Source: Terriglobia bacterium (GTDB lineage: Bacteria > Acidobacteriota > Terriglobia > Versatilivoradales > Versatilivoraceae). Taken from it: a stretch of 64,000 nt of DNA. Under the pieces are notes generated by a model, which saw only the letters and a program-made list of their open reading frames with translations, searched no databases and was not told the DNA's origin. The translations under genes and the position numbers were made by a program. The stretch covers positions 20,692 to 84,691 of the forward strand of contig JAXLQK010000019.1 in the NCBI GenBank assembly GCA_046331665.1, in the 5' to 3' direction. Shown here one piece after another: positions 4,957 through 22,340 of the stretch; position 1 is the stretch's first letter, and every line of letters starts with the position of its first letter.

Positions 4957-7425
4957 ATGATCCGCAAGCCACCAAAGATCCTAAAGAGATTACTGTTATT
5001 CGGCAGCCTGCTCTTCTTGCCTCAGTCCCAAGGACCCTCTCTTCTCGGTCAGGGAGCGGCACCCCAAGCGAAGATTGAATTCAATCGGGATATCCGTCCA
5101 ATTCTATCTGACAACTGTTACACCTGCCACGGTCCCGACAAAGCCAACCGAAAGACCAGCCTTCGTCTGGATAACGAGGCGGGCATCTATGAGGATCTCG
5201 GAGGGTATCAAGCAGTTGTCCCGGGAAATCCGGATAAGAGCGAGTTATATCGCAGAGTTTCGTCTCAAGATGAGTCTCGACGCATGCCTCCTGTTTATTC
5301 GGGACGAACTCTGACAGCGAACCAGGTTGCCCTCATCCGTCAATGGATCGAACAAGGCGCTAAATGGCAAAAGCACTGGGTTTTTGTTCCTCCGGTTCGT
5401 CCCGAGCTTCCACAAGTCAATCAAAAGACATGGCCACGTAATGCGATTGATTATTTTGTCCTTGAACGATTGGAAAAGGAAGGGCTGACGCCATCCCCTG
5501 AGGCTCCGCCGGAAATCCTGATTCGTCGAGTGACACTCGATTTGACCGGCTTGCCCCCCTCCCCGCAGGAACTGGATGCTTATTTGTCGGACCATTCTCC
5601 CAATGCATACGAAAAGGTGGTTGACCGTTTGCTGCAGTCCTCGCGCTTCGGAGAACGAATGGCCATTCGTTGGCTCGAGGCTGCGCGTTACGCTGATACC
5701 AATGGCTATCAAACCGACGCAGAAAGGATCATGTGGCGCTGGAGAGATTGGGTAATTGACGCCTTTAACCGAAATATGCCATTCGACGAGTTCACGATTG
5801 AACAGATCGGCGGAGACTTGCTGCCGAATGCGACCACGGATCAGAAGCTGGCGACAGGTTTCAATCGGAATCATCGCGGGAATGGCGAAGGGGGAATCAT
5901 CCCCGAAGAATACGCAGTGGAATATGTTGCGGACCGTGTCGATACGGTCTCGACGGTGTGGCTCGGGTTAACTATGGGTTGCTCGCGTTGTCATGACCAC
6001 AAGTATGACCCCGTCACACAAAAAGAGTATTACCAGCTCTTCGCCTTCTTTAATAATGTCCCGGAGAAAGGCCATGCCAATAAATTCGGGAACTCACCGC
6101 CGGTCATCAAGACTCCAACGTCACAGCAGGAGGCGGAACTCTGGGACCTTGATCGGCGGCAGGTTGAGGCAGACAAGGTTTGGAAATCACTGCAACCCCA
6201 ATTGATTGCCGCGGAGCGAGGTTGGGAAAAGAACTTCAACCGATCGCGCCTGATCGACTGGTCCCTCACAGACGGCCTGGAAGCCTATTTCCCGTTGGAT
6301 GGAAACACCACGGATCGTTCCCGTAAAACCACCCCGGAGAAGACCGCTCAGCCTTCTTTCCGTGATGGTAATCCTGACTATGCGGCTGGACAAGTCGGGC
6401 TTTCCGGCTCCTTTGATGGGAAGCGCTTTGTCGATGCAGGGAACGTTGCTGATTTTGGATTCTATGACAAGTTTACAATGGCGGCTTGGATTTACCCACT
6501 TGACGAAAAGGGTGGCGCCATTCTGACGCGAACCAAAGACCTCAGCAAGGAGCAAGGCTACGGCCTCTATTGGGTGGATGGGAAACTCCAGGTAAACCTG
6601 GTTCAGCGTTGGCTGGATGATGCCCTGCGACTCGAAACTCAACAATCGTTTTCACCTGGACAGTGGTATCACGTGGCGGTTACCTATGACGCTTCCCGAA
6701 CAGCCGACTCCGTAAGGCTTTATGTCAACGGGAGCCCGGTTCAGTTGAAGGTCCTGCTCGATGATTTCTATCAAACATTCAAGATTGCTGAACCGTTTCG
6801 GATTGGAGGAGGGGGCGGCCCTGAAATCCGTTTCCATGGCTACATCGATGAAGTAAGAGTCTATAACCGGGTCCTGGCTCCGGACGAAATTCAACTCGTC
6901 TCTTGTAAAGATCGAATTAGCGAGATCGTTGCCATCCCCCCGGACCAGCGTACCGAAACGCAAAGCGCAAAACTAAGAGCCTACTTTGTCTCCACCGGTG
7001 CTGCCAAACCCATCCAGGAGGCTTACGCGAGGATCATCGCACTACAGCGAGAGCGCGAGAAACTCATCGACTCCATTCCGACGACTATGGTCATGCAGGA
7101 AATGAATCCTCCCCGGAATTCCTACATTTTGATTCGGGGTTCCTACGATCGTCATGGCGAGCGCGTTCAGCCTGCCGTCCCCGCCGTTTTCAACCCTCTT
7201 CCTGCAGGGCTCCCGGCCAATCGACTCGCTCTCGGGAAATGGCTTGTGGATCCCGCCAACCCCGTCACCGCTCGTGTAATCGTCAACCGGTTTTGGCAGA
7301 TGTATTTCGGAAATGGATTGGTCCGGACAGTCGAAAATTTTGGTTCCCAGGGGGAATGGCCGACCCACCCCGCGCTACTGGATTGGCTGGCGACCGAGTT
7401 TGTTCTAAATCGCTGGAACGTGTAA
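4957..7425 (+). CDS. PSCyt1 (c-type heme CxxCH) / DUF1549 (PSCyt2) / LamG-like lectin insertion / DUF1553 (PSD1) protein, N-terminal 822 aa, ending at a premature in-frame TAA
   Basis: A signal peptide is present. CYTCHGPDKANRK is the heme-binding motif, and the DUF1549 region follows. A concanavalin/LamG-like block (FDGKRFVDAGNVADFGFYDKFTMAAWIY...LYVNGSP...IDEVRVYNRVL) precedes DUF1553. The ORF stops at TAA 7423-7425, in the middle of the domain, relative to its paralogue at 14892-17594. Confidence 0.85.
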   Translation: MIRKPPKILKRLLLFGSLLFLPQSQGPSLLGQGAAPQAKIEFNRDIRPILSDNCYTCHGPDKANRKTSLRLDNEAGIYEDLGGYQAVVPGNPDKSELYRRVSSQDESRRMPPVYSGRTLTANQVALIRQWIEQGAKWQKHWVFVPPVRPELPQVNQKTWPRNAIDYFVLERLEKEGLTPSPEAPPEILIRRVTLDLTGLPPSPQELDAYLSDHSPNAYEKVVDRLLQSSRFGERMAIRWLEAARYADTNGYQTDAERIMWRWRDWVIDAFNRNMPFDEFTIEQIGGDLLPNATTDQKLATGFNRNHRGNGEGGIIPEEYAVEYVADRVDTVSTVWLGLTMGCSRCHDHKYDPVTQKEYYQLFAFFNNVPEKGHANKFGNSPPVIKTPTSQQEAELWDLDRRQVEADKVWKSLQPQLIAAERGWEKNFNRSRLIDWSLTDGLEAYFPLDGNTTDRSRKTTPEKTAQPSFRDGNPDYAAGQVGLSGSFDGKRFVDAGNVADFGFYDKFTMAAWIYPLDEKGGAILTRTKDLSKEQGYGLYWVDGKLQVNLVQRWLDDALRLETQQSFSPGQWYHVAVTYDASRTADSVRLYVNGSPVQLKVLLDDFYQTFKIAEPFRIGGGGGPEIRFHGYIDEVRVYNRVLAPDEIQLVSCKDRISEIVAIPPDQRTETQSAKLRAYFVSTGAAKPIQEAYARIIALQREREKLIDSIPTTMVMQEMNPPRNSYILIRGSYDRHGERVQPAVPAVFNPLPAGLPANRLALGKWLVDPANPVTARVIVNRFWQMYFGNGLVRTVENFGSQGEWPTHPALLDWLATEFVLNRWNV

Positions 7426-7443
7426 TCACTCCAGAAAGAGATC

Positions 7444-8157
7444 GTGATGAGTGCCACGTACCGTCAATCCTCAAAGATAACTCCGACCTCGATGCTGCGT
7501 GATCCGGAAAATCGGCTGTTGTCCAGAGGGCCGCGGCTGAGGCTTACGGCAGAAATGGTGCGCGACCAGGCCCTCGCGATCAGCGGGCTCCTCGTGGAAA
7601 AAATTGGCGGCCCCTCGGTAAAGCCTTATCAGCCTGAGGGTCTGTGGAAAGAGCTCAGCGGCGGGGACGACTATGAACCCGACAAAGGCGAAAACCTTTA
7701 TCGCCGAAGCCTCTACACCTATTGGAAACGGACAGCCGCCCCTCCCGCAATGATGACTTTTGATGCCCCCTCCCGCGAAACCTGCGCCGTCCGGCAGACG
7801 CGAACCAATACCCCTCTTCAAGCCCTGAACTTGATGAATGATGTGACTTATATGGAGGCGGCTCGGGCGCTGGCACAACGGACCATGAATGAAGCCGGCC
7901 AGACTCCTGAAGCCCGTCTGAAGCTGGCCTTTCGTCTGGCCACCTGTCGTTGGCCCACGACTGTGGAACTTCAAAAACTCCAGGATGGGTTCCAATTCCA
8001 ACTGGGTCAGTTTCGAGCCGATCCATCGGCCGCCTTGAAATTGGTTAGCGTTGGTGAATATCCGATCAATCAGAAGCTGGATATCGCAGAGCTGGCTGCT
8101 TATGCGACACAAGCCAGCCTCATCCTGAATCTGGATGAGACCATGAGTAAGGAATGA
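7444..8157 (+). CDS. C-terminal DUF1553 (PSD1) fragment, in frame with 4957-7425; the two are probably one gene separated by the TAA at 7423
   Basis: Same reading frame as the upstream ORF, since 7444-4957 is divisible by 3. The sequence across the stop, NRWNV*SLQKEIVMSATYRQSS, aligns with the paralogue's ENWNVKRMHKLIVMSATYRQSS. An AAGAGA-like RBS lies 6 nt upstream of ATG 7444. Confidence 0.6.
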   Translation: MMSATYRQSSKITPTSMLRDPENRLLSRGPRLRLTAEMVRDQALAISGLLVEKIGGPSVKPYQPEGLWKELSGGDDYEPDKGENLYRRSLYTYWKRTAAPPAMMTFDAPSRETCAVRQTRTNTPLQALNLMNDVTYMEAARALAQRTMNEAGQTPEARLKLAFRLATCRWPTTVELQKLQDGFQFQLGQFRADPSAALKLVSVGEYPINQKLDIAELAAYATQASLILNLDETMSKE

Positions 8158-8160
8158 ATC

Positions 8161-9627
8161 ATGAACCCTATTCGTGAACGAGAACTTCATCTGAACCGTC
8201 GTCATCTTCTGAGCTTCGCAGGCCGTGGGATCGGATTGGCCGCCTTGATGTCACTGCTCAATGAGGATATTCCCTCCGCTTTGGCTGGAGAGCTGCCCAA
8301 TTCCACCGCTACTTCCAGCGAGTTCCCCAACTTCGCTCCCAAAGCCAAACGCGTCATTTATCTCTTTCAATCCGGGGCTCCCTCGCAGCTTGAACTGTTT
8401 GATTACAAGCCCAAAATTGCAGAGCTTCGGGGCACGGAGCTGCCGGATTCCATCCGAAAAGGTCAGCGCCTGACTGCCATGACGTCAGCCCAATCGAGTT
8501 TTCCGGTGGTCCCCTCGCTTTTCAAGTTTGCCCAGCATGGACAGTCCGGGACATGGGTGAGTGAACTCATGCCTCACACGGCAAAAATCGTGGATGAGCT
8601 ATGCTTCATCAAGTCCATGCACACGGAGGCGATTAATCACGACCCGGCTATAACCTTTTTTCAAACCGGCGCTCAGTTGGCAGGGAGGCCCAGTATCGGT
8701 GCCTGGTTAACCTACGGGCTCGGGAGCGAAAACAAAGATCTGCCTGCGTTCGTGGTCATGATCTCTCAAGGCTCCGGAAATCCCGCGGATCAACCGCTTT
8801 ACGATCGCCTGTGGGGAAGCGGCTTTCTTCCTCCCCAATATCAGGGAGTGAAATTTCGTTCCGGAAGCGATCCGGTCCTTTACCTTTCGAATCCGCCGGG
8901 CATGTCAGATCCTTCACGCCGGCGTTTTCTCGATGACCTGGCCCAACTGAATCAGCTGAGCCTAAATGAATTTGGCGATCCGGAAATCTCCACTCGAATC
9001 TCCCAGTATGAGATGGCTTACCGGATGCAAACGTCCGTGCCTGAGTTGACAGACCTCTCGGGAGAACCCGCCCAGGTGTTTGAGCTTTATGGTCCAGAAT
9101 CGAAGAAGCCTGGAACGTATGCCGCCAATTGCCTATTGGCAAGGCGCCTCGCGGAAAGAGGGGTGAGGTTCATCCAGCTCTATCATCGGGGTTGGGACCA
9201 ACACTTTACCCTGCCAAAACAGATCGTGGGACAATCCCGGGACACGGACCAGGCTTCAGCAGCCCTGATCCTGGACCTCAAACAACGTGGGCTGTTGGAT
9301 GACACACTGGTGGTTTGGGGCGGGGAGTTTGGAAGAACCATCTATTGTCAGGGGAAATTAACCGCTGATGATTACGGCAGGGATCATCACCCCCGGTGCT
9401 TTACAGTTTGGCTGGCCGGCGGAGGGATCAAGTCCGGGATTACCTTTGGGTCCACCGATGATTACTGTTACAACATCACGGAGAATCCGGTTCACGTCCA
9501 TGATCTCCATGCCACGATGCTCCATTGCTTGGGAATTGACCATACTCGACTCACCTACAAGTACCAGGGACGCTACTTCCGATTGACCGACATTAGCGGC
9601 GAAGTGGTGAGCAAAGTGTTGACTTAA
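8161..9627 (+). CDS. DUF1501 protein (sulfatase/alkaline-phosphatase fold) with a Tat signal
   Basis: [20 protein letters not shown] is a Tat motif. Conserved DUF1501 blocks are present ([10 protein letters not shown]..., [27 protein letters not shown]). The start lies 3 nt after the stop of the upstream PSCyt gene, so the two are translationally coupled. Confidence 0.85.
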
Positions 9628-9662
9628 CCCCTCCCAATTACGTTGGCCTACAGATTACGTAC

Positions 9663-10517
9663 TCATCCCTTTCCGTAGAGCTGGCGATAGCGTTCGAAGT
9701 ATTGGCGAACCTGCTCCATGATTTGCTGGTATTCCGGATCACTCCGCAGTTTCTCAAAATTCTTGTCCCGCTGGAACCAGGGGTAATTATGGTTCCCCAA
9801 TTCCATACTTCGGCGCAACCAAGACAAGGCTTGGCTTCTATCACCCAGCAGGGAATAGACTGAAGTGATCCAATAGGCCAAATCTCCATCAATGACATCT
9901 TCCCGGTTGGGGCTTAATACCTTGGGGTCTATTTTCTGTCGATTGCCTTGAGAGGCATACAAGAATCCAAGGAAATACAGCGGTGCATCGTCCCCCTTCG
10001 GACCGCTAAGTTCTTTGGCTTTGAGGAGTATTGGTTCTGCTTCGGCAAGTTTCCCCTGGTAATAGAGAAACTCGCCAAGATAAGCCATGGCTTTGTATTG
10101 GTCGGGAGAATTGGCTAATATGCGCCGCATTTCCTCCTCTGCCTCTTTGACCTTTCCCAGGTAAAGCAGCATGCGGGCATGCATCCAGTGGACTCGATGG
10201 GACGTTGGATTGAGTTCCATACTGCGTAGGTATTCTCTCTCAGCCAGATCGATTAAACCGGTATAGTGATAAGCATAACCCAGCATATCGTGCGCCCAGT
10301 CGGAATTTGGGGCCATACCATTCCCCTTCTTGAGCTTTTCAATGGCCTCCACATTACGGCCAAGTTGAATATAGATTCCGCCCATTGATATGTAGACGTC
10401 TGCAAGACGCGGATTCAATTGCATGGCTTTTTGAGCCATTCGCTCCGCATACGCCAAGTTTCCCCGAGCGTTATCAATAAAGTTCGCGGCCTCCATCATG
10501 CAAACATCCGCCAGCAA
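9663..10517 (-). CDS. TPR-repeat protein; probably the displaced C-terminal TPR domain of the upstream Ser/Thr kinase
   Basis: At least six TPR-like repeats. The ORF-track start is a TTG with no RBS. The same frame stays open upstream to 10559 ([16 protein letters not shown]...), overlapping the kinase stop. Confidence 0.6.
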   Translation of the reverse strand: MLADVCMMEAANFIDNARGNLAYAERMAQKAMQLNPRLADVYISMGGIYIQLGRNVEAIEKLKKGNGMAPNSDWAHDMLGYAYHYTGLIDLAEREYLRSMELNPTSHRVHWMHARMLLYLGKVKEAEEEMRRILANSPDQYKAMAYLGEFLYYQGKLAEAEPILLKAKELSGPKGDDAPLYFLGFLYASQGNRQKIDPKVLSPNREDVIDGDLAYWITSVYSLLGDRSQALSWLRRSMELGNHNYPWFQRDKNFEKLRSDPEYQQIMEQVRQYFERYRQLYGKG

Positions 10518-10543
10518 TGTATAAGCTTGAACAAATGTGGGGT

Positions 10544-12148
10544 CTAATTTGATGGCTTCTCAAGAAGGGTCTGCCCTCGCTGGAGGCTTTCCAGGCGAGA
10601 ACGCATGGCGTACTCATTCCAATAAAATCGGGCTTGGATATAGAGATTATAGGCATCCGGAGAATGTGTCATCGGAGCCGTCATACAAGCTTGCTCGTCT
10701 TCCGTCACTGATACACTCAATCCTTCGACCACCTTCTGGGCTACTTGATCTTGGAACATCAGCATATCTTTGGCCCGCAAATCATACCGTTGGGCCCAAC
10801 GGGTTGACCGACTCTTAGGGTCACTGAGAAGAACCGACACCCGCATGACATCGCCAACGCGCTGAAAGGTTCCTTCCAGAACGGACTCTACATCAAGCTC
10901 CTGGGCGACCTGGGCCGGATCGGCTGGCGCCTGCACATATTTCAACACCGAGCTCGTAGGCCGGACTGCCAGGTTCTGCAAGGTGGCCATCCGGCTGATG
11001 ATGGCATCGGACATCCCAATCCCCCACGCCTGGTTCTCTTCTTTCCCAGCAAGATCCCGGAACGGGAGCACCGCTACTGTTCGCACCGCGGACTTTGCAA
11101 TGGCCGGCGGAGAATTGGGAACGGGATTGCCCTGCCTTGACTCGAAAAACCATGCCGCGACACTGAGGATCAGAATGGCAAGGGAAGCGACCACTGCCCA
11201 AATTCGGAAACGAGATCCTTTCGACCTTTTGTTTGGTCCTGTAGAGTTTGAAGCCGCCCTCAAGCGGGTGGACTCTAGATCACGTTTCAGGCGTCTCAGG
11301 TCCCCCCTTAAGTCGGACGCGGACTGGTAGCGCAGCTCACGATCCTTCTCGAGGGCTTTGAAGATGATTCGCTCCAACTCGGCCGGTAATTCTGGATTAA
11401 TGGTTCTTGGCGATACGGAGGCGCGGTTAAGGATAGAGTCAAAGAGGATGGCGGGGGTATTCCCATTAAAAGGTGGACCACCCGTAGCCATCTCATAAAG
11501 CACAGCCCCAAACGAAAAAAGATCGGAACGTCCATCCAATTCTTCTCCCCGAGCTTGCTCAGGAGACATATAGGCGATGGTGCCGATGGTTGATCCCGGG
11601 CTGGTTAATTGCGGATCGCGCATCGACACCGTCAAGAGGTCTGTAGGTGCCGCAGTTTTCGCGTCTTTTTCTTTGGAGGTCGCTAATTTTGCCAATCCAA
11701 AATCCAAAAGTTTGACTTGAGCCCGTTGCGTCACAAAAATATTGGCGGGCTTGATATCCCGATGAACAATTCCCTTGCTGTGGGCCGCCTCGAGCGCGTC
11801 GATGATTTGAATCGCCAAATCTAATAACGGCTCGATCTTGAGGGGGTTGCCGTCAATGAAAGAGCGGAGGGTCATGCCCTCCATCAATTCCATGACAATA
11901 AAGGGTTGGCCTTCGGACTCGTCAACCTCATGAATGGTACAGATGTTGGGATGGTTCAATGCCGAAGCGGCTCTCGCCTCACGTTGGAATCGTTCCAGCG
12001 CCTGCTTGTCTTGGGCGAGGTCCCCGGGTAGAAACTTCAACGCCACTTGCCGGTTAAGTTTGAGGTCCTCAGCCAGATACACAACCCCCATTCCACCACC
12101 GCCAAGTTTTTCAACGATCTGATAATGGGTAACAGTTCTGCCGATCAT
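10544..12148 (-). CDS. Hanks-type Ser/Thr protein kinase with a TM helix and an extracytoplasmic TolB_N-like domain
   Basis: Kinase motifs are present: [13 protein letters not shown]...[26 protein letters not shown] segment, [19 protein letters not shown], follows. [30 protein letters not shown] matches the TolB_N-like domain, which in related kinases precedes TPRs. The gene ends PSN* in a different frame from the TPR ORF that follows. Confidence 0.85.
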
Positions 12149-12349
12149 AAGGAGTTTTAGAAAACGATGTTAAGGAGTAGATCGTTCCAAGTCAATTGAG
12201 GATTTGGGGGGGGAGAGGCATTGCGGCAGAGCTCTTCTCTACTCTGCCCTTGACACCCTTTGAGGTTCACATAAAATGACCCTGCTCCGGCCATGAGAGG
12301 AGAGCCCCGCTGTTGAAGGACTAGCTTGATTCCAAAGGAGGTTTCCGCA

Positions 12350-13258
12350 GTGGCAAAGTTGCTTTCAATCGGCACTTGGGCCTATGCCTTTGGGCCCTAC
12401 CAGTCAAATCCTGTTCCCTTTGAAACCGTATTGCAGAAGCTGGGCGAGCTTCATTATGACGGCGTGGAAATCGGGGCCTTTAAACCCCATATCCATCCTG
12501 ACGATTACCCCACCCTCGCAGATCGTCAGCGCGTGAGATCCATGATTCAAGAAAACCAGTTGCGTGTCTCCGGACTCGCGGCTGATTTCTGGGGGGATAA
12601 AGGACCTGGCACGGACGCCGCACAAGAAAACGACTACTATCTTCACCTCTTTGAAAAAAACTTGAAGCTGTGCGCTGACCTGGGCTCTCCCAATATTCGG
12701 GTGGATACGGTCAGCGGCCCCGATGGTGTACCGGGAATAGATGGGAAGACCGCCCGGAAGCGAATTATTGAATTATGGAAGTTGTGTGCCGAAATGGCCC
12801 GGCGGAAGGGAGTCAAGGTTGTCTGGGAATTCGAACCCGGTTTCCTCTTCAACAAACCTTCTGAAGTCGCCCAACTGGTGGCTGATGTCAATCATCCTAA
12901 CTTCACGGTGCTCTTCGACACCTGCCATGCTTATATGTGCAGTGTCGTCGGCGCGCGCCAAGCCGGAAATAAAGAACTCCTGAAAGGCGGAGTGGTCGAA
13001 TTTGCTCAAATGCTAAAGGGAAAGATCGGACATGTCCACGTCATTGACTCGGACGGGACGCTCCATGGAGAGGAGACCAGCACCCATCGCCCGTTTGGTG
13101 AAGGATTCATCCATTTTGAGGAAGCTCTGGACGCCATTTTTCATGGCGCAGGATATCAGGGCGAGTGGTTGACTGTGGATTTGTGCTTCTGGCCTGAAGC
13201 GTGGGAGGTTACGGCCAAAGCCAAGGAGTTTCTTAGTCCCTACCTGGCCAAGTATTGA
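12350..13258 (+). CDS. Sugar phosphate isomerase/epimerase (xylose-isomerase-like TIM barrel)
   Basis: The AP-endonuclease-2/XylA-like TIM-barrel pattern is present (HYDGVEIG, VDTVSG, VWEFEPGF, DTCHA, HVHVIDSDG). The ORF track starts at 12326. I prefer GTG 12350, which has AAGGAGG 8 nt upstream. Confidence 0.7.
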   Translation: MAKLLSIGTWAYAFGPYQSNPVPFETVLQKLGELHYDGVEIGAFKPHIHPDDYPTLADRQRVRSMIQENQLRVSGLAADFWGDKGPGTDAAQENDYYLHLFEKNLKLCADLGSPNIRVDTVSGPDGVPGIDGKTARKRIIELWKLCAEMARRKGVKVVWEFEPGFLFNKPSEVAQLVADVNHPNFTVLFDTCHAYMCSVVGARQAGNKELLKGGVVEFAQMLKGKIGHVHVIDSDGTLHGEETSTHRPFGEGFIHFEEALDAIFHGAGYQGEWLTVDLCFWPEAWEVTAKAKEFLSPYLAKY

Positions 13259-13380
13259 TCAATCCCGTATTCCGGGGGATTTCACCTTGGCTCGATGAAT
13301 GTACCCTGTCACCCGTTCCATATCCGATCTGGTCTGATAAAGTGTGTGACGGTCTGCCCGGCGACCAAACCGGCAAATGG

Positions 13381-14826
13381 TCAGGCCAAAAGTTTGGGAA
13401 CGACATTGCCTGCGACATCGGTCAGCCGGAAATCACGCCCTTGATGGTGATAGGTCAGCTTCTCATGATCAAAACCCAAACATTGCAGGATCGTGGCATG
13501 CAAGTCGTGCACATGGATGCGGTCTTCCACGACGTTGAGGCACAGGTCATCGGTTTTGCCAATCACTTGCCCCCCTTTAATGCCTCCCCCTGCCATCCAG
13601 ATACTAAAGGCAAAGGGGTGGTGATCACGTCCTTCACTTCCTTTCTTGGGGTTCCGGCTCTCAACTAACGGAGTTCTCCCGAATTCCCCGGCCCAAATCA
13701 CCAGGGTTGAATCGAGCAATCCACGCTGCTTCAAATCCTTGAGTAAGGCGGCTACGGGCTGGTCGGTAATATCGCAATTCTTCTTCAAATGACTGACCAA
13801 TTCTGCGTGGTCATCCCAGCTCGCATGCATGATCTGGACAAAACGAACTCCCCGTTCCACCATCCTGCGAGCCAGCAGGCAATTCGAGGCAAAGGGTTTT
13901 GTGGGTTCCTTGTCGACCCCGTACATCTCGAGGGTCTTGGGAGACTCCTTGGAGAAATCAAGGAGTTCCGGGGCCGCTGCCTGCATCCGGAATGCAAGTT
14001 CGTAAGACGCAATTCGGGAGGCGATTTCAAAATCCCCGCTTTCCATGTAATTGGCCTCATTTAAATCTCGAATCACGTCGAGAGTTGACCGCTGGAGCTG
14101 ACGATTCAGGCCTTGAGGATTGGAAAGATAAAGCACGGGATCACCGCTGTTGCGGAAGGTAACGCCCTGGTAGGTAGAGGGCAGAAATCCGCTGGACCAA
14201 TTGGCACTTCCGGCACTGGTGCCGACTCCCGAGCTCAGGACCACAAATCCCGGTAGATTTTGAGATTCACTCCCCAAGCCATAAGTCACCCAGGCTCCCA
14301 TGGAGGGGCGCCCCACCAGTGGTGAGCCGCAATTGAGCATTAACTGCCCCGGATGATGGTTGAATTGCTCCGTATACATGGAGCGGATCATGCAGATATC
14401 ATCGGCACAGGTCGCGAGATGTGGAAGGTAGTCGGAAATTTCGATGCCGCTCTGCCCGTAAGGCTTAAACTCTCTCGGACTGGCCCAAACCCGGGCATTT
14501 GGCTTAATGAAAGCCAGTTTTAAATTCTTGGTCATCGATTCCGGGAGCGGGTGGCCGTCCCACTTTCGCATTTCTGGCTTCGGATCGAAAAGATCCAGCT
14601 GGCTGGGGGCTCCTTCCATGAAGAAAAAGATGACATTCTTGGCCTTGGGGGCAAATTGAGGAGGTTTCGGCTGCATGGGATTGACGCTCGGCAAAGTGCC
14701 CGCCAGGGCAGTCGTGAGCCCCTCACTCGCCAACAATTGCCATAAGCCAATGGCCCCAACACCCCCGACGCATTCCGCGAGAAACTTACGACGGGAATGA
14801 ATTTTCTGGAATTCCTGGAAATTCAT
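13381..14826 (-). CDS. DUF1501 protein (sulfatase-like fold) with a Tat signal; paralogue of 8161-9627
   Basis: SRRKFLAECVGGVGAIGL is a Tat motif. The same conserved blocks occur (VIWAGEFGRT, DHHPFAFSIWMAGGGIKGG). GGGAGG lies 5 nt upstream of the ATG. Confidence 0.85.
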   Translation of the reverse strand: MNFQEFQKIHSRRKFLAECVGGVGAIGLWQLLASEGLTTALAGTLPSVNPMQPKPPQFAPKAKNVIFFFMEGAPSQLDLFDPKPEMRKWDGHPLPESMTKNLKLAFIKPNARVWASPREFKPYGQSGIEISDYLPHLATCADDICMIRSMYTEQFNHHPGQLMLNCGSPLVGRPSMGAWVTYGLGSESQNLPGFVVLSSGVGTSAGSANWSSGFLPSTYQGVTFRNSGDPVLYLSNPQGLNRQLQRSTLDVIRDLNEANYMESGDFEIASRIASYELAFRMQAAAPELLDFSKESPKTLEMYGVDKEPTKPFASNCLLARRMVERGVRFVQIMHASWDDHAELVSHLKKNCDITDQPVAALLKDLKQRGLLDSTLVIWAGEFGRTPLVESRNPKKGSEGRDHHPFAFSIWMAGGGIKGGQVIGKTDDLCLNVVEDRIHVHDLHATILQCLGFDHEKLTYHHQGRDFRLTDVAGNVVPKLLA

Positions 14827-14891
14827 CGATCCTCCCCTGTAAGCGCTTGTCTTCCTATGAACATCGCCCCACGTTTGAGCTCCTGAACTTT

Positions 14892-17594
14892 TTAACCTCG
14901 TGTGATGAACTCATCCAGGTTAAGCAGAGCCCTAGAAATGCTAACCCAGATTGCGGCCTCGGTTGCATCGACCCCTTCAACTCCATGTGCCGCATAGAGA
15001 CTCTCTGCCACATCCGGGTTCTCCTTCAAAAAGGCTTTCTGGTCATCATAATAGCGAACCAACCTCTCCCGCTCCGCAGGTTTGGGGGGCCGGGCAAGAC
15101 AGAGTCGGAATGCATAGTCAATCCGCTCGTTCAAGCTGCCCGGTTTTTCACGCAAGACCCGGGTTGCCAGACCCTGAGCCGCTTCAAAGAAGACAGGGTC
15201 GTTCAGAAGATTGAGCGCTTGCAAGGGAGTTGTGGAACGCTCCCGGCGACTGCAAACGAGTAACGAGTTCGGAGCATCGAAATTCATCAATTCGGGGTAT
15301 GGCGTCGTTCGCTGGAAAAAGACATAGAGTCCTCGTCGATACCGGGCCGTCCCTTCACTTTCTTTCCACTTGACGCTCATCGCATAGCCCAGGTCGGTCA
15401 CCCCCTTCGGAATGACAGGGCGGACGCTTTTTCCTCCGATGGTCGGGTCCAGCAGTCCGCTCGTCGCCAGCGCATTATCCCGAATCAATTCCGCCGGCAA
15501 ACGCAAACGCGATTGCCGGGCGATCCACTTGTTATAGGGATCCCGTGCTTCCAGCTCTTTTCTCGTTTTGGAAGATTGGCGGTAAGTCGCTGACATCACA
15601 ATCAGCTTATGCATGCGCTTGACGTTCCAATTCTCCCTGACAAATTCGGCCGCCAACCAATCGAGCAATTCTGGATGCGTCGGGCGCTCCCCTTTGATTC
15701 CAAAATCCTCCGAGGTTTCCACAATCCCATGGCCGAAAAATTCCTGCCACATCCGGTTCATCGTGACCCGGGGCGTTAAGGGATTTTCAGAGGAGACTAG
15801 CCAGCGGGCAAACCGAAGACGGGCAGGTTCATTTGTGACAGGAAAGGGCGGCAAGACCGCCGGCGTGCCAGGAGAAACTTCAATCCCCGGTTGCAAGTAA
15901 TCCCCTCTGATCAAGACGTGGGTCTTGGGGGGATTTGGATTTTCGGTAATCGTGGGCGCTTCTGTCAGACTCGGGTACTGTTCGGAAAGCTGGTCAAGTT
16001 TTTCACCAAGCTCCTTGAACTTGAGCTCATCGTAACGATCTTTCCCCTCGGCAATGGAATAATATCGGACAATGTGGTCGGTAAGCCTGTCTTGCTCCTT
16101 CTGCGTTCGTTCGGTTGGATTCTTCAAAAGAATCTCTTGACCGTGATCCAACATTTTGCCGACAGTGTCCCAAGACACATCGTATGGAACGTTGATGCCG
16201 GGATGAGTGGAGGCCTCCAGGGTCTTCTTCTCCCAGTCACCCTGAATTTCGGCAACCTTATATTCCTCCAGCAAGGCCTTCCGTTTCTTGTCGTACTCGG
16301 GTTTGCCCTGAAGATAGCCCCCTATTTCTCCAGGAGACGGAGCTTCAACATTAACTTCACGCGCTGTATTAAAAAAGGCGAGGAGCTGATAGAACTCCCG
16401 CTGGCTGATGGGATCGTATTTGTGATCGTGACAACGAGCACAGCCGATAGTTAACCCCATCCAGGTGGTCCCTGTCGTGATCGTACGGTCGAGCACTTGT
16501 TCGACGCGAAATTCCTCGTTATCGACCCCGCCCTCCCGGTTCGTCAGAGTGTTGCGATTGAAACCCGTGGCGATTTTTTGATTAAGCGTTGCGCGCGGCA
16601 ACTGATCCCCGGCAATCTGTTCGATGGTAAACTCGTCGAAGGGTAAATTGCGATTGAGCGCTTCGATCACCCACTGCCGGTATCTCCATGCGTAGGGCCG
16701 AACATTGTCCTTCTCATACCCATCACTATCCGCATAGCGAGCCAGATCGAGCCAATGGCGGGCCCACTTTTCGCCGTAGTGGGGGGAATCGAGAAGGCGA
16801 TTCACGAGCCTTTCATAGGCATCGGGGGAATCATCCGCAACAAAGTTCGACACTTCCTCGGGAGTCGGAGGCAGACCCGTAAGATCAAAGCTTAATCGCC
16901 GAATCAAGGTGATCCGATCGGCTTCAGGAGAAGGCTGGACCTGCTCCGATTCCAGCTTACTTAAAATAAAGGCATCGATTGGATTTCTTATCCAGGCTGA
17001 GTTACCGACACGAGGCAAGGGAGGCTGCTTGAGGGGCTGAAAAGCCCAATGCGACCTTCGAGGATCTTCACTGGCCCTTGCGATGGGCTTTGCCCCATCC
17101 TCCGACCAGTCGACACCTTGATCAATCCATGCCCTCAGCAATCCAACCTGTTCGGCCGTCAAGCGATCTCCGGCCGGGGGCATGACCTTCCCCTCGTCCG
17201 CTCCTGCCACCAAGCGAATCAGTTTGCTCCCTGCACTGTCCGCCGGCTTGATCACGGCACCAGAGTTTCCGCCATCCAGTGCATGTTGACGACTGTCAAG
17301 CCGGAGGCCGCTCATTTGCATCTGAGGCCCGTGACAGGACAGGCAGCGACTGCTCAAAATCGGTTGGACGTCGCGCTTGAAATCTATTTTCTGAGTGGCT
17401 GCCGGAGGCAAGTCCGGTTTCGCAGCTAGCTGTGTCTGAGCCTTGTAGCCCCCGACACATAGCAGGAGCAATGGCAAAACTGTCAGGTTGCAGCGTAGGC
17501 CTCGGATACTCAGGGCAGATCGAAATCCATCCATCTCGTTATTTGTTTTCTCCCAATCTAGCGGCGCCCGTTTCTTCTGCTTTTGGACTGCCAT
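14892..17594 (-). CDS. PSCyt1 (CxxCH heme) / DUF1549 / DUF1553 protein, intact 900-aa paralogue
   Basis: RCLSCHGPQMQMSGLRLD is the heme-binding region. The DUF1549 and DUF1553 blocks are collinear with 4957-8157 but lack the LamG insertion. A signal-like N-terminus is present. Confidence 0.85.
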   Translation of the reverse strand: MAVQKQKKRAPLDWEKTNNEMDGFRSALSIRGLRCNLTVLPLLLLCVGGYKAQTQLAAKPDLPPAATQKIDFKRDVQPILSSRCLSCHGPQMQMSGLRLDSRQHALDGGNSGAVIKPADSAGSKLIRLVAGADEGKVMPPAGDRLTAEQVGLLRAWIDQGVDWSEDGAKPIARASEDPRRSHWAFQPLKQPPLPRVGNSAWIRNPIDAFILSKLESEQVQPSPEADRITLIRRLSFDLTGLPPTPEEVSNFVADDSPDAYERLVNRLLDSPHYGEKWARHWLDLARYADSDGYEKDNVRPYAWRYRQWVIEALNRNLPFDEFTIEQIAGDQLPRATLNQKIATGFNRNTLTNREGGVDNEEFRVEQVLDRTITTGTTWMGLTIGCARCHDHKYDPISQREFYQLLAFFNTAREVNVEAPSPGEIGGYLQGKPEYDKKRKALLEEYKVAEIQGDWEKKTLEASTHPGINVPYDVSWDTVGKMLDHGQEILLKNPTERTQKEQDRLTDHIVRYYSIAEGKDRYDELKFKELGEKLDQLSEQYPSLTEAPTITENPNPPKTHVLIRGDYLQPGIEVSPGTPAVLPPFPVTNEPARLRFARWLVSSENPLTPRVTMNRMWQEFFGHGIVETSEDFGIKGERPTHPELLDWLAAEFVRENWNVKRMHKLIVMSATYRQSSKTRKELEARDPYNKWIARQSRLRLPAELIRDNALATSGLLDPTIGGKSVRPVIPKGVTDLGYAMSVKWKESEGTARYRRGLYVFFQRTTPYPELMNFDAPNSLLVCSRRERSTTPLQALNLLNDPVFFEAAQGLATRVLREKPGSLNERIDYAFRLCLARPPKPAERERLVRYYDDQKAFLKENPDVAESLYAAHGVEGVDATEAAIWVSISRALLNLDEFITRG

Positions 17595-17669: not shown

Positions 17670-17993
17670 TTAGCTCAACACCCAGTTCTTTGGAGTCTCC
17701 ACGAATCGGATGCCAACCTTCTTTTTCATCTCACTCTCGTCCATCCAAACGGCCTTAACTTCGGCGTTACATATGAACTTTCCCTGAAAAGCCGTTAACT
17801 TGACGATGCTACCCAACTTCAAGATGTGGTCGACTAAAACGCAGGCCCCAAGCTTGCTGACGTTTTCCGTCGTGGTTTCCTCAATGAAATGCTGATCGTC
17901 AGCGTCAGCCCCTTCGAGGACTACGGGGATAGCCAGGAGGACACGAGTCTCCTTTCGTTTTACCCTCCAGAAATCCACACGTTCTCCAGTCAA
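17670..17993 (-). CDS. PilZ-domain protein, last gene of the dnaK operon
   Basis: RKETR (RxxxR) and ENVSKLGA (DxSxxG-like) motifs are present, with the typical C-terminal GIRF. The start overlaps the stop of the upstream ATPase gene. Confidence 0.6.
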   Translation of the reverse strand: MTGERVDFWRVKRKETRVLLAIPVVLEGADADDQHFIEETTTENVSKLGACVLVDHILKLGSIVKLTAFQGKFICNAEVKAVWMDESEMKKKVGIRFVETPKNWVLS

Positions 17994-17995
17994 GG

Positions 17996-18742
17996 TCAGT
18001 ATTGGTATTGTGCTTGTTTAACTTTGAGTCGGAAGTCAAAACCTTCGATACGAATCACTTTGCACATCTCGTACAGCCGGGAGCGCAAACGTGTCCCGAT
18101 ACGGTCTTCGAGACTTTCTTCCTTTGACAATACGGTCCCATTGGAAAGCGTTTTGGGTTCCCTTAGTTGGTCGTCAAAGTTTGTGGTGATGATGGTTGTT
18201 AAGCGCCGATTATATCTGGAATTAATGATATAAGAGACCGTCTCCCGAACCCATTCGGTAGGTCGTTCAGCCCCCAGGTCATCTAGCACCAGCAGATCAC
18301 TGTTTAAGACGGGCTCAAGAATTTCCAGCTCGGAGGACTGAGAAACAGGGTTATAGGAATTCTGAATCCGTTTGAGCAACTCACGAAAATCACAGAACAA
18401 ACCCCGAGCCCCCACCTTCTGAATGATTTCCCGCAAAATCGACACAGCCAAGTGGGTCTTGCCCACACCGCAAGGCCCCAGAATCAACAGGCCACAATCC
18501 ACCAGAGGATATTCTTCTACAAACTTCAGCGCGGCCGCCTTAACCAGTTTAAGGCGTTCCGTGATCGGATTAAAGTTTTCGAATGAACAATGCTCATAGC
18601 GTGCGGGGAGATGAGCAAGTTCAATCAATCTCTCTAATTTTCGTTGCTGCACACAGGCACAAGGAACGACCCCCTGCGGTTCGGCATCTTCGAGATACCG
18701 CCAACCGGTCCCTCCACAGATTTGACATTCTGCAGTTAGCAT
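17996..18742 (-). CDS. DnaC/IstB-like AAA+ ATPase (putative helicase-loader-type protein) with an N-terminal four-Cys motif
   Basis: Walker A LILGPCGVGKTHLAVSI and Walker B LLVLDDLG are present. The N-terminus carries CQICGGTGW...VPCACV, which is zinc-ribbon-like. It starts 9 nt downstream of hspR. Confidence 0.65.
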   Translation of the reverse strand: MLTAECQICGGTGWRYLEDAEPQGVVPCACVQQRKLERLIELAHLPARYEHCSFENFNPITERLKLVKAAALKFVEEYPLVDCGLLILGPCGVGKTHLAVSILREIIQKVGARGLFCDFRELLKRIQNSYNPVSQSSELEILEPVLNSDLLVLDDLGAERPTEWVRETVSYIINSRYNRRLTTIITTNFDDQLREPKTLSNGTVLSKEESLEDRIGTRLRSRLYEMCKVIRIEGFDFRLKVKQAQYQY

Positions 18743-18751
18743 CGCTTCGAG

Positions 18752-19141
18752 TTAACGATCCAATCGAACCATCTTAGAGGGGATGGTTCGCACCAAGGCA
18801 TTTTGAGCGTCGGATCGAGGCTCCGACATGCGCCCAGAAAGCTCCGTTTGAATTAGTTTCATAAACTGGCGCATTTCTTTTTGCATTTCTTCAACCCGGG
18901 CCCGCATGTTCAAAATGATTTCCACTCCGGCCAAGTTTACACCCAGGTCGCGAGTTAAGTTCAAAATCAATTCCAGCCGTTTCAAATCCTCATCGGTGTA
19001 AAGACGGGTATTTCCTTCAGAACGGGAAGGCTTCAGGAGCCCCTGACGTTCGTAAAGACGCAAGGTTTGTGGATGAACGTCGTAAGTCTTGGCCACATTA
19101 CTGATCATGTAAGCCGCTTTGTCCTTCTTCTTCCTGACCAT
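18752..19141 (-). CDS. hspR: MerR-family heat-shock repressor HspR
   Basis: A MerR HTH (YMISNVAKTYDVHPQTLRLYERQGLLKPSRSEGNTRLYTDEDL) and a coiled-coil C-terminus. It lies directly downstream of dnaJ, as in hspR operons. Confidence 0.8.
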   Translation of the reverse strand: MVRKKKDKAAYMISNVAKTYDVHPQTLRLYERQGLLKPSRSEGNTRLYTDEDLKRLELILNLTRDLGVNLAGVEIILNMRARVEEMQKEMRQFMKLIQTELSGRMSEPRSDAQNALVRTIPSKMVRLDR

Positions 19142-19153
19142 CGTGCAAGCCCC

Positions 19154-20257
19154 TTATTGACCAAACAAACCCTGGCGAGGGTTCTCCGGATTCAACCGAC
19201 CCAACTCCCGAAGCAGCTCTTTGCTCCGCTCATCCACTAGTTTGGGTGTAACGACGCGTACTTCAACATATTGGTCCCCGTGGGTTGGGGCCCTCAAAGA
19301 GGGAGCCCCCTTCTCTCTCAATCGGAATTTCTGTCCGCTCTGGGTCCCGGGAGGTATTTTCAAAAGAGCACGACCTTCCACGGTGGGGACTTCAATCTTG
19401 GCGCCCAGAGCAGCTTCAGTCAGTGTGATGGGAATCTTGCAGTAGATGTTGTCCCCCTTTCTCTCAAAAAAGGGGTGGCTGCTCACTGTGGTCACAATAT
19501 AAAGATCCCCGGGAGTCCCTCCATTCATTCCAAAATCTCCCCGGCCGGCAAAACGAATTCGTGAACCAGTTTGGACTCCTGCCGGAATCTTGATTTCGAG
19601 GCTTTCTGACTTTTGAACTCGCCCTTCGCCACGGCATTGGGAACAAGGTGTCGTGACTTTCCCGCTTCCACCACATTGAGGACAGGTGGTCGAAAACCGC
19701 ATCTTCCCCTTTAGCTGTTCCACCTTGCCGGATCCCCGGCAATAAGGGCAATCCTGATCTTTTCCTTCGCCGCTCACCCCTTTTCCATGGCAGGTAGGGC
19801 AAATCTCACGACGCAAGTAGCTGATGCGGGTCTGCAGTCCCTTCAACGCGTCGTCAAAGCTTATCGAAACCTGGTACTCCAAGTCATCCCCTTTCTGAGG
19901 ACGGTTTGCGGAACGGTGCCCGCCAAAAAGCTGGGAGAAGAGATCCCCAAACCCTGAGCCTCCTATATTGGAGAAATCGAATCCTTCGAAATCCACTTGC
20001 GGCCCAGGTTGCGGTCCTGGGCCGGGTCGGAAGTTATCAGAATAGGTTCCGTAGTTGTCATAGATTTCCCGCTTTTTTGGATCGCTCAGGACCTCATAGG
20101 CCTCGGAAATCTTCTTAAACCGCTCCTCAGCGCGCTTGTCCCCCGGATTGACATCAGGGTGATGCTTGCGTGCAAGTTTCCGGTACGCTTTCTTAATGGC
20201 TTCTGGAGAGGCGTTTCTCGGGATATTCAAAAGTTGATAATAGTCTTCCGTTGCCAT
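19154..20257 (-). CDS. dnaJ: Molecular chaperone DnaJ
   Basis: J domain with HPD ([30 protein letters not shown]). Four CxxCxGxG zinc-finger repeats and the C-terminal domains are present. Confidence 0.95.
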
Positions 20258-20423
20258 ATTCGTGGATTTAATTGTTGGACAGACTGGGGAGTTTCTCGGG
20301 AAAGCGCGGCTGAGGCCCCTAGCATCCGCACACCCTGACTTTTAAGCTCAAGGGGTAGAGCATGCCTGAATTGACAAATCCTCCCAGGGGACTCGAAGGT
20401 CCCCTGGCAAGTCATTGGCAGAA

Positions 20424-22340
20424 TCACTTCTTCTTCTCGTCAACTTCGTCATAATCTGCGTCGATGATTTCCCCTTCAGCAGGTTTCGAATTCGCCGAAG
20501 ATCCCGTTCCTGCAGCCCCCGCTGCGGCCCCCGGCTGGGCCCCTGCCTGCTTGTAAAGGACATCCGCCATTTTGTGAGTCGCGGAGGTGAGCCGCTCCAC
20601 GGCCGCGTTGATGCGATCAGCCCCGCCCTCTGCAATGGCGCGCTTGCATTCTTCCAAAGCGGATTCAATAGATTTGGCATCGGCCTCGGAGACCTTTTCC
20701 CGATTCTCTTTGAGCAGCTTCTCCGTGTTATAAACCAGGGAATCGGCGCGATTCTTGGCTTCGACTTCCTCACGATATTTCCGGTCCTCCTCAGCATGGG
20801 ACGATGCATCCTTGGTCATACGGTCAATCTCATCCTTGTTTAAGCCGCTCGTTGCAGTGATCGTGATCTTTTGCTCTTTGGAAGTCGCCATGTCTTTCGC
20901 CGACACATTGACGATCCCATTGGCGTCAATATCGAAGGTCACTTCGATTTGAGGAACTCCTCGAGGGGCAGGAGGGATCCCTACCAAATGAAATTTCCCC
21001 AGTGTTCGGTTGTCCCGAGCCATGCTTCGTTCCCCTTGAAGCACGTGGACTTCTACCGATGTCTGGTTGTCCGCAGCCGTTGAAAAGATTTCGCTCTTCC
21101 GCGTCGGGATCGTCGTATTTCTGTCAATCAGCTTCGTGAACACACCCCCCAGAGTTTCAATCCCCAGGGACAATGGCGTCACATCCAGGAGGAGAAGATC
21201 TTTGACATCCCCTGCTAATACCCCTGCTTGAACCGCCGCTCCAATGGCTACGACTTCATCAGGATTGACTCCCTTGTGAGGCTCTTTCTTGAAGAGATCG
21301 CGCACAATTTGCTGAACTCTGGGGATGCGCGTCGACCCCCCAACCAACACGACTTCGTCAATCTCTTCCGGCTTCACTCCGGCATCGGAAAGCGCCTGCT
21401 TACAGGGATTCGCACTCCGCTGCAGGATGTCTTCTACCAACGCTTCGAATTTCGCACGAGTCAGCTTCATGCTCAAGTGACGCGGACCCGAGGCATCGGC
21501 AGTGATAAAGGGTAAATTGATCTCTGTTTCCAGGACACTGGAAAGTTCCATCTTCGCTTTTTCGGCTGCTTCTTTGAGACGTTGCAGTGCCATCTTGTCC
21601 TTGGAGAGATCAATGCCTTGATCCTTGATAAATTCATCAACGATCCAATCCATCACCCGTTGATCAATATTGTCTCCCCCGAGATGGGTGTCGCCATTCG
21701 TGGACTTCACCTCGACAACGCCTTCTCCTACCTCCAGGATCGAGATGTCGAAGGTTCCCCCGCCAAAATCGTAGACCGCAATCGTTTCATCCTTTTTCTT
21801 GTCCAATCCGTAGGCAAGCGCAGCCGCCGTCGGCTCATTGACGATGCGCAAGACCTCCAACCCAGCAATCTTGCCGGCATCTTTGGTGGCCTGCCTCTGA
21901 GAATCGTTGAAATAAGCGGGCACAGTAATGACCGCCTTGGTCACTTTCTCCCCCAAGTATTCTTCTGCAGCCTGCCTCATCTTTTGCAGGATCATTGAAG
22001 AGATCTCTGGAGGACTATATTCCTTTCCCATAACAACAACTCGAGCATCGCTGTTGGATGCCCGGGCCACCCGGTATGGAACGATCTTCATTTCTTCATT
22101 TACTTCATCATATTTTCGTCCCATGAACCGCTTGATCGAGTACACTGTGTTTTCGGGATTGGTCACCGCCTGACGCTTGGCAACCTGGCCCACCAGCCTT
22201 TCCCCATTCTTTGTAAAGGCTACGACCGACGGCGTCGTGCGACTCCCTTCAGGATTCGTGATGACTATGGGTTCCCCACCCTCCATCACCGCAACCACCG
22301 AGTTCGTTGTACCCAAATCTATTCCGATAATCTTACTCAT
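20424..22340 (-). CDS. dnaK: Molecular chaperone DnaK (Hsp70)
   Basis: [22 protein letters not shown] and the full Hsp70 architecture. 638 aa. Confidence 0.97.

Follow-up and report, generated by a model that had tools for sequence, protein, structure and literature searches.

Gene organization of the two loci

The window analysed here is a 64,000-nt stretch from a metagenome-assembled genome (MAG) of Terriglobia (Acidobacteriota), in which two gene pairs and the interval between them occupy positions 4957–17594. Each pair joins a gene for a large protein composed of PSCyt1, PSCyt2 (DUF1549) and PSD1 (DUF1553), hereafter PSCyt, with a gene for a DUF1501 protein (Table 1). Both loci are almost certainly members of the known PSCyt–DUF1501 module, since each contains DUF1501 (PF07394), a partner with PSCyt1, PSCyt2 and PSD1, a conserved co-oriented adjacency and a twin-arginine signal; both genes are intact in copy 2, and copy 1 alone departs from this pattern. 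A first-pass annotation had placed a CxxCH-containing DUF1549/DUF1553 protein and a DUF1501 protein at these two loci, and the open reading frame (ORF) listing and the Pfam matches bear out both the coordinates and the domains. Furthermore, DUF1501 and PSCyt proteins of the window have 100% identical counterparts among the NCBI proteins from a Terriglobia MAG, and the names of these counterparts support the module identity; the DUF1501 protein of copy 1 is one with such a counterpart.

Table 1. Coordinates of the module genes and of the genes between the two copies
Feature	Position (nt)	Strand	Description
Copy 1 PSCyt gene, 5' part	4957–7425	+	822 codons; Sec-type signal, PSCyt1, PSCyt2/DUF1549, Laminin_G_3, PSD1 profile positions to 68; ends in TAA
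Copy 1 PSCyt gene, 3' part, same frame	7426–8157	+	PSD1/DUF1553 profile positions 71–241, E = 3.9e-61; TGA at 8155–8157
Copy 1 DUF1501 gene	8161–9627	+	488 aa; twin-arginine motif LNRRHLL at 8191–8211; alkaline-phosphatase-superfamily fold
Ser/Thr kinase–TPR gene	9663–12148	-	Split: kinase ORF 12148–10544, TPR ORF 10517–9663
Xylose-isomerase-like TIM-barrel gene (AP_endonuc_2)	12326–13258	+	Pfam match; lineage-specific neighbour
Copy 2 DUF1501 gene	13381–14826	-	481 aa; twin-arginine motif SRRKFL at 14796–14779
Copy 2 PSCyt1–PSCyt2–PSD1 gene	14892–17594	-	Intact; 900 codons from first ATG; no LamG

The module was described by Kamneva et al. 2012 (PMC3542564), including the Tat (twin-arginine translocation) signal, variants with Laminin_G_3 or F5_F8 domains, the expansion in the Planctomycetes–Verrucomicrobia–Chlamydiae (PVC) group and its presence in some Acidobacteria, and was described again by He et al. 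2017 (PMC5615132). In R. baltica, 41 copies of each domain exist. The pairs of the window share with the PVC module (PMC3542564, PMC5615132) the domain architectures, the position of DUF1501 next to PSCyt, the twin-arginine signal, the optional Laminin_G_3 and the many paralogues per genome. They differ in the host, an acidobacterial (Terriglobia) MAG, although both papers already mention occasional non-PVC members, and in the premature stop that interrupts one of the two cytochrome genes in this assembly. In the literature library searched, only genomic descriptions of DUF1501, DUF1549, DUF1553 or PSCyt were found and no functional study, in line with the first-pass statement that the module has no established biochemical function.

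In copy 1, the large ORF runs in a single frame from its start to the TGA (ORF listing and translation), and the DUF1501 gene begins 3 nt past this codon, with a Shine–Dalgarno-like AAGGAA. The Pfam matches of this copy comprise PSCyt1 (E = 1.4e-15), PSCyt2 (5e-87), Laminin_G_3 (1.9e-25), PSD1 and, in the partner, DUF1501 (1e-157). The two CxxCH motifs are located at 5116–5130, within PSCyt1, and at 5980–5994, at the end of PSCyt2. Laminin_G_3 (LamG) covers residues 493–646 (nt 6433–6894), and no such domain is matched by Pfam in copy 2.

In copy 2, PSCyt1, PSCyt2, PSD1 and DUF1501 (E = 1e-159) are likewise matched, the CxxCH motifs are situated at 17345–17331 (PSCyt1) and 16442–16428 (end of PSCyt2), and the DUF1501 gene follows after a gap of 65 nt with a Shine–Dalgarno-like GGGGAGG. 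Because the orthologues are 881 aa long, the true start of this PSCyt protein is probably Met21 at 17534. Between the two copies, identity amounts to 48% for DUF1501, 50% for the N-terminal part of PSCyt and 39% for its C-terminal part; the two loci are old paralogues of the known two-gene module, and no third copy exists in the window. The close spacing of the genes, the twin-arginine signals, the divergence of the paralogues and the restriction of LamG to copy 1 had all been noted in the first-pass annotation and agree with these values.

Premature stop codon in the copy 1 cytochrome gene

Copy 2 is intact. The PSCyt gene of copy 1 is broken within the PSD1 domain by an in-frame TAA at 7423–7425, between Pfam profile positions 68 and 71, which the first reading had missed. 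In three orthologous loci, each with an intact protein of 1066 aa, this codon is AAA or AAG (Lys). The orthologues P0002 and P0004 served as comparison. Since the portion past the stop still retains 79% identity to the orthologues, the lesion does not mark a gene in long-standing decay; either it makes the copy 1 cytochrome gene a recent pseudogene or it is an assembly error. As assembled, copy 1 is unable to yield a full-length cytochrome partner, and therefore only copy 2 is certainly intact. No exact match to either fragment of this gene was found among the NCBI proteins, which is consistent with the pseudogene call. Selenocysteine insertion or programmed read-through at the stop was considered and rejected, the codon being TAA instead of TGA and aligning to Lys in the three orthologues.

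Structural features of the DUF1501 protein

DUF1501 is a large family with 28,911 representatives at 50% identity (E ≤ 1e-3). The protein possesses a sulfatase-like fold of the alkaline-phosphatase superfamily, as had been proposed at first reading. In an hhalign comparison with an S1 sulfatase, the C-terminal half is aligned with an E-value of 6.6e-5, and the motif pairs WAGEFGRT/FTSDNGGV, GGGIK/EGGIR and HDLHATIL/MDLFPTIL (DUF1501/S1 sulfatase) follow each other in the same order. Compared with the S1 formylglycine sulfatases, DUF1501 differs at several positions. The C/S-x-P-x-R formylglycine motif is absent at the nucleophile position, where DUF1501 reads GAPSQ; the SDNG of the sulfatases aligns to GEFG, in which Glu-Phe replaces the ligands Asp-Asn/His; and strand 1 ends in QSG or MEG, with no acidic residue at its end, instead of the N-terminal Asp-Asp ligands of the sulfatases.

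Among 50 diverse members, R12, R13, K83, H157, D338, H340, E381, R384, R400 and H402 are invariant (copy 2 numbering), and S75, D81, D142, D401, D426 and D441 are nearly so. No invariant Cys was found in this set. The twin-arginine pair (RR) is invariant in it, a feature that also sets the family apart from the S1 sulfatases, and DUF1501 is predicted to be exported by Tat. Because of the motif alignment, the set of invariant residues and the missing C/S-x-P-x-R and invariant Cys, DUF1501 is, as judged from sequence, no formylglycine sulfatase but a branch of its own within the alkaline-phosphatase superfamily; this branch is probably metal-dependent. It is equally distant from all characterised branches of the superfamily, namely S1 sulfatases, ENPP, LtaS/EptA, phosphonate monoester hydrolases (PMH) and alkaline phosphatases (AP). 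A PDB sequence search gave no match for DUF1501, and NCBIfam has no model for either core protein.

Haem motifs and structure of the PSCyt partner

Exactly two CxxCH motifs exist in each of 48 aligned PSCyt homologues. Both PSCyt proteins of the window carry N-terminal hydrophobic signals and are predicted to be exported by the Sec route. The model of PSCyt is mostly helical, with a mean predicted local distance difference test (pLDDT) score of 79.8 and a predicted template modelling (pTM) score of 0.78. PSCyt1 is related to the C-terminal haem domain of hydrazine synthase alpha (profile E = 9.5e-5; Foldseek probability 1.00) and also matches the haem c domains of PccH and FoxE, so that the first CxxCH lies in a domain whose haem c fold is known. 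PSCyt1 has its fold and its motif context, DFxRDIxPIL..C..CH, in common with hydrazine synthase alpha (5c2v), FoxE (5mab) and PccH (4rlr). Unlike in these proteins, PSCyt1 is an N-terminal appendage of a helical body of ~700 residues, formed by PSCyt2 and PSD1 and containing the second CxxCH. The haem c-like PSCyt1 and the export predicted for both partners speak for the first-pass idea of an exported haem-dependent enzyme complex; each large protein has two CxxCH motifs and not one.

In the PDB sequence search, only the PSCyt1 domain of PSCyt was matched, and Foldseek against the PDB added only hydrazine synthase; the PSCyt2/PSD1 body has no solved relative by either search. A Pfam scan of PSD1 and PSCyt2 alone, with E up to 10, gave no links to other DUF families such as DUF1800, a further putative partner of DUF1501. 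Two invariant segments have pLDDT below 50 in the model, the second CxxCH (GCxRCHDHKYDP, residues 384–395) and residues 767–791 (FDAP...C..R..S.TP.QAL). This would be expected of segments whose folding depends on a cofactor or a partner.

Conservation of the gene pair across genomes

Orthologous loci were recovered at one genome per species, giving 80 loci for the neighbour scan. Close orthologues of the copy 1 DUF1501 (64–83% identity) come from MAGs with the labels Acidobacteriota, Planctomycetota, Verrucomicrobiota, Armatimonadota-like and Hydrogenedentes. Such identity between MAGs of different phyla argues for very strong constraint, for horizontal transfer or for a combination of the two. 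Some labels in the series L004–L083 are suspect (Acidimicrobiia for L004, Heliomicrobium for L022, Akkermansia muciniphila for L008 and L015), these MAGs appearing to be mis-binned or mislabelled.

In 54 of the 75 loci with enough upstream sequence to judge, a PSCyt/PSD1 gene is located directly upstream of DUF1501 and in the same orientation, the median gap being ~15 nt, and 49 of 55 partners are single intact ORFs. The pair was also found in all five annotated loci inspected on plasmids of cultured Gammaproteobacteria, Bacteroidota and Planctomycetota (Catenovulum, Saccharobesus, Haliscomenobacter, Chondrinema and Singulisphaera). The adjacency is thus conserved across phyla, as the first-pass annotation had claimed. 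Measured against the copy 2 profile, the stretch that separates PSCyt2 from PSD1 is longer by at least 134 residues in all 54 adjacent partners, and the LamG insertion is therefore a trait of the copy 1 subfamily. Across 52 pairs compared with the window, identity decreases from DUF1501 (69%) to the N-terminal part of PSCyt (63%), PSD1 (55%) and LamG (40%), and the divergence of DUF1501 and of its PSCyt partner is correlated (Spearman rho 0.41–0.44).

The surroundings of the pair vary among the annotated loci. In Catenovulum, it is surrounded by GH43, GH115 and GH98 (glycoside hydrolase, GH) genes. In Saccharobesus litoralis (L087:3529–9475), the partner has PSCyt2 and PSD1 without PSCyt1; on the 3' side of DUF1501, a small hypothetical gene is followed by cytochrome c' and a b561-type membrane cytochrome b, within a locus that also holds GH88, pectate lyase, a TonB-dependent receptor and a LamG protein. 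In Haliscomenobacter, the pair occurs with a set of extracytoplasmic function (ECF) sigma factor, FecR and TonB-dependent receptor genes and with a gene resembling the formylglycine-generating enzyme (FGE); the latter encodes a short FGE-sulfatase (SUMF1-like) protein (L086:3313–3978, minus strand), ~0.5 kb upstream of the cytochrome/DUF1501/DUF1553 cluster. A protein composed of a DUF2231 membrane domain, PSCyt1 and leucine-rich repeats (LRR) adjoins the pair in Catenovulum (L084:14561–15898) and in Haliscomenobacter (L086:4460–5977). Judged by its domains, this protein may represent a third cytochrome component of the module, recurrent and anchored in the membrane; no counterpart was found in the window.

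Where no PSCyt gene adjoins DUF1501, the upstream ORFs, checked for CxxCH and Pfam domains, are unrelated or without match in every locus except L009. Here, a giant protein of 1659 aa (L009:2861–7837) precedes DUF1501 and contains GDSL lipase, DUF7133, HEAT and F5_F8 type C domains and a C-terminal cytochrome c, with no PSCyt; going by this domain content, it is an alternative haem-bearing partner architecture.

Proposed function and alternative explanations

The module identity and a five-step mechanism built on the features above are, taken jointly, the best explanation, which we regard as rather probable; the mechanism in itself is tentative. The large protein, which has a Sec-type signal and two invariant CxxCH motifs, would cross the membrane unfolded, and c-type haem would be attached in the periplasm. 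DUF1501, with its family-invariant twin-arginine, would be exported by Tat in the folded state, probably with a metal centre already loaded, the candidate ligands being S75, D81, H157, D338, H340, E381 and H402 in the alkaline-phosphatase/sulfatase-type fold. The co-oriented genes, tightly spaced or translationally coupled, would give rise to one periplasmic two-subunit enzyme. Ligand selection would fall to the variable, fast-evolving insert that separates PSCyt2 from PSD1 (LamG in copy 1); the ligand would probably be a glycan or some other polyanionic organic compound, on which DUF1501 would perform a conserved substitution or hydrolysis at an ester-like group. The haem c domain would tie this chemistry to electron transfer, either through oxidation of the substrate (or product) or through control over the redox state at the metal site. 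PhoX and PhoD, periplasmic ester hydrolases that Tat exports with their Fe/Ca metal centre already assembled, provide an analogy only; their folds are unrelated to those of the module, and they have no cytochrome partner.

Several observations weigh against this explanation. At a mean pLDDT of 67.8, the DUF1501 model is of no more than moderate quality, and the second CxxCH lies in a model loop of low confidence (pLDDT below 50 at residues 386–391), where the haem site is putative. No adjacent PSCyt gene exists in 21 of the 75 close DUF1501 orthologues, and ~14 have none within 8 kb, so that the coupling of PSCyt and DUF1501 is not obligatory at the level of gene order. No CAZyme (carbohydrate-active enzyme) or sulfatase genes were found in the 64-kb window. 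That the two proteins form a complex and bind haem and metal, and on what substrate they act, is inferred throughout. A carbohydrate or sulfated substrate, which the first-pass annotation had suggested, is plausible from the LamG insertion and from the GH and polysaccharide lyase neighbourhoods of other genomes; nothing in the window backs it, the remaining genes there being housekeeping.

Two alternatives would change the chemistry assigned to DUF1501. It might be a formylglycine-dependent sulfatase that desulfates polysaccharides, with the cytochrome as an accessory, which would agree with the fold and the C-terminal motifs, with the FGE-like gene near the Haliscomenobacter module and with the report that PSCyt genes of Verrucomicrobia have sulfatase genes in their vicinity (He et al. 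2017, PMC5615132). The missing C/S-x-P-x-R at the N-terminal position, the lack of a family-invariant Cys and the Glu-Phe in place of the metal-binding Asp-Asn/His make this very unlikely. To our knowledge, an invariant Tat signal is also not typical of S1 sulfatases. On the other hand, the pair could be a periplasmic dehydrogenase-like complex that passes electrons from an organic substrate via haem c to the respiratory chain, the metal site of DUF1501 being redox-active instead of hydrolytic. Tat export is typical of cofactor-containing redox enzymes, and the two invariant CxxCH motifs per partner, the kinship of PSCyt1 to electron-transfer haem domains and the extra cytochrome genes beside the pair in Catenovulum and Haliscomenobacter (DUF2231–PSCyt1–LRR) and in Saccharobesus (cytochrome c', b561) point in the same direction. 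Against this, the Saccharobesus partner lacks PSCyt1, no flavin, pyrroloquinoline quinone (PQQ) or Mo-binding signature was found by Pfam or NCBIfam, and we know of no redox enzyme in the alkaline-phosphatase superfamily beyond the side activity of E. coli AP on phosphite. A mainly redox role is unlikely.

The remaining alternatives concern catalysis as such and the extent of the functional unit. A non-catalytic binding or scaffold pair of the periplasm, e.g., for polymer capture, with DUF1501 as a pseudo-enzyme, would account for the many paralogues per genome with variable binding-type inserts and for the large helical PSCyt2/PSD1 body without an enzyme-like solved relative. It is very unlikely in view of the 69% identity across phyla that makes DUF1501 the most conserved part of the module, of the invariant His, Asp, Glu and Arg retained where the superfamily builds its metal site, and of the invariant Tat signal. 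Meanwhile, the first-pass annotation had described two mirror copies around a kinase island. In the last alternative, both copies, the kinase–TPR (tetratricopeptide repeat) gene and the TIM-barrel gene would form one functional unit in which the kinase regulates the modules or senses their product. The convergent layout with kinase–TPR and AP_endonuc_2 is indeed kept in the relatives L001, L002 and L004 (DUF1501 83–85% identical). Of the 80 other loci, no more than 1–4 have the kinase, TPR, TIM-barrel, MR_MLE and BON neighbours, with close homologues in L004 only; unrelated genes (PMT_2, SGL) are inserted into the interval of the relatives; the kinase gene is frameshifted in the window; the synteny is no deeper than shared ancestry predicts at ~80% protein identity; and more distant genomes with the pair lack the arrangement. 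We consider such a unit very improbable, and a functional meaning of the island is not supported.

The module might even represent a new class of periplasmic, haem-coupled metalloenzyme, in which a new branch of the alkaline-phosphatase superfamily is joined to a dedicated two-haem partner of novel fold and interchangeable lectin-type inserts such as LamG set the specificity; in this full form the proposal is unlikely. If it is true, Planctomycetota, Verrucomicrobiota, Acidobacteriota and some marine bacteria that degrade polysaccharides would possess a toolkit comparable to CAZymes, directed at modified glycans or organic esters. The DUF1501 family is very large and has multiplied to dozens of copies in phyla that abound in soil and water; since its naming in 2004–2012 no function has been assigned to it, and a solution would close a gap in the picture of organic-matter processing by these bacteria. 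The useful outcomes at this stage are that DUF1501 is no classical sulfatase by its sequence, that its Tat signal and a set of residues are invariant, and that PSCyt2/PSD1 has no solved relative. With an uncultured MAG, one damaged copy and a housekeeping context, the window is no easier test case than other genomes, and Catenovulum, Saccharobesus, Haliscomenobacter and Singulisphaera are cultured carriers with informative polysaccharide-degradation contexts.

The interval between the copies and the rest of the window

The kinase, TPR ORF and sugar-phosphate isomerase reported between the copies are present, but the kinase and TPR ORFs are one frameshifted gene and the isomerase is a generic AP_endonuc_2 TIM barrel, whose sole NCBIfam matches are weak and to epimerases and isomerases. 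In the relative L002, kinase and TPR form a single protein of 828 aa. In the window, a 1-nt deletion near 10556, where one A is lost from an AAA run, places the two halves in different frames, and the kinase fragment of 534 aa is present as a protein at NCBI. Together with the TAA at 7423–7425, this brings the single-nucleotide lesions within 13 kb to two, a number that speaks for either leftover assembly errors or gene decay in progress.

The relatives L001, L002 and L004 share with the window the order MR_MLE dehydratase, BON/Gly-zipper protein, PSCyt–LamG, DUF1501, kinase–TPR on the opposite strand, AP_endonuc_2, a few variable genes, and DUF1501 with PSCyt on the opposite strand. L004 belongs to the same lineage as L001 and L002. 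Because it is the only one of the 80 loci with close homologues of the neighbours, the pattern of mirror copies around a kinase is inherited synteny of one lineage; the kinase–TPR and TIM-barrel genes are inherited, lineage-specific neighbours outside the conserved module. A second DUF1501 nearby is not rare in itself: it exists within 8 kb in 6 of the 75 loci, and two pairs lie in tandem on a Singulisphaera plasmid. In L001 (ENA contig_30113), genes that are intact in L002 are fragmented (MR_MLE, 227 + 91 aa; URO-D, 161 + 77 aa; kinase, 333 aa), as is typical of an indel-rich long-read assembly, and gene calls from L001 therefore call for caution.

No tat genes were found in the 64-kb window. 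Beside copy 2, a string of genes at 17670–22340 on the minus strand comprises dnaK, dnaJ, a MerR/HspR-like regulator, an IstB/DnaA-like AAA ATPase without an IstA transposase partner nearby, and a PilZ gene. Outside the two copies and their interval, the window is ordinary chromosome, including this dnaK/dnaJ, PBP1A, lexA/dinB, mfd, surA, a 2-oxoacid dehydrogenase complex and transaldolase.

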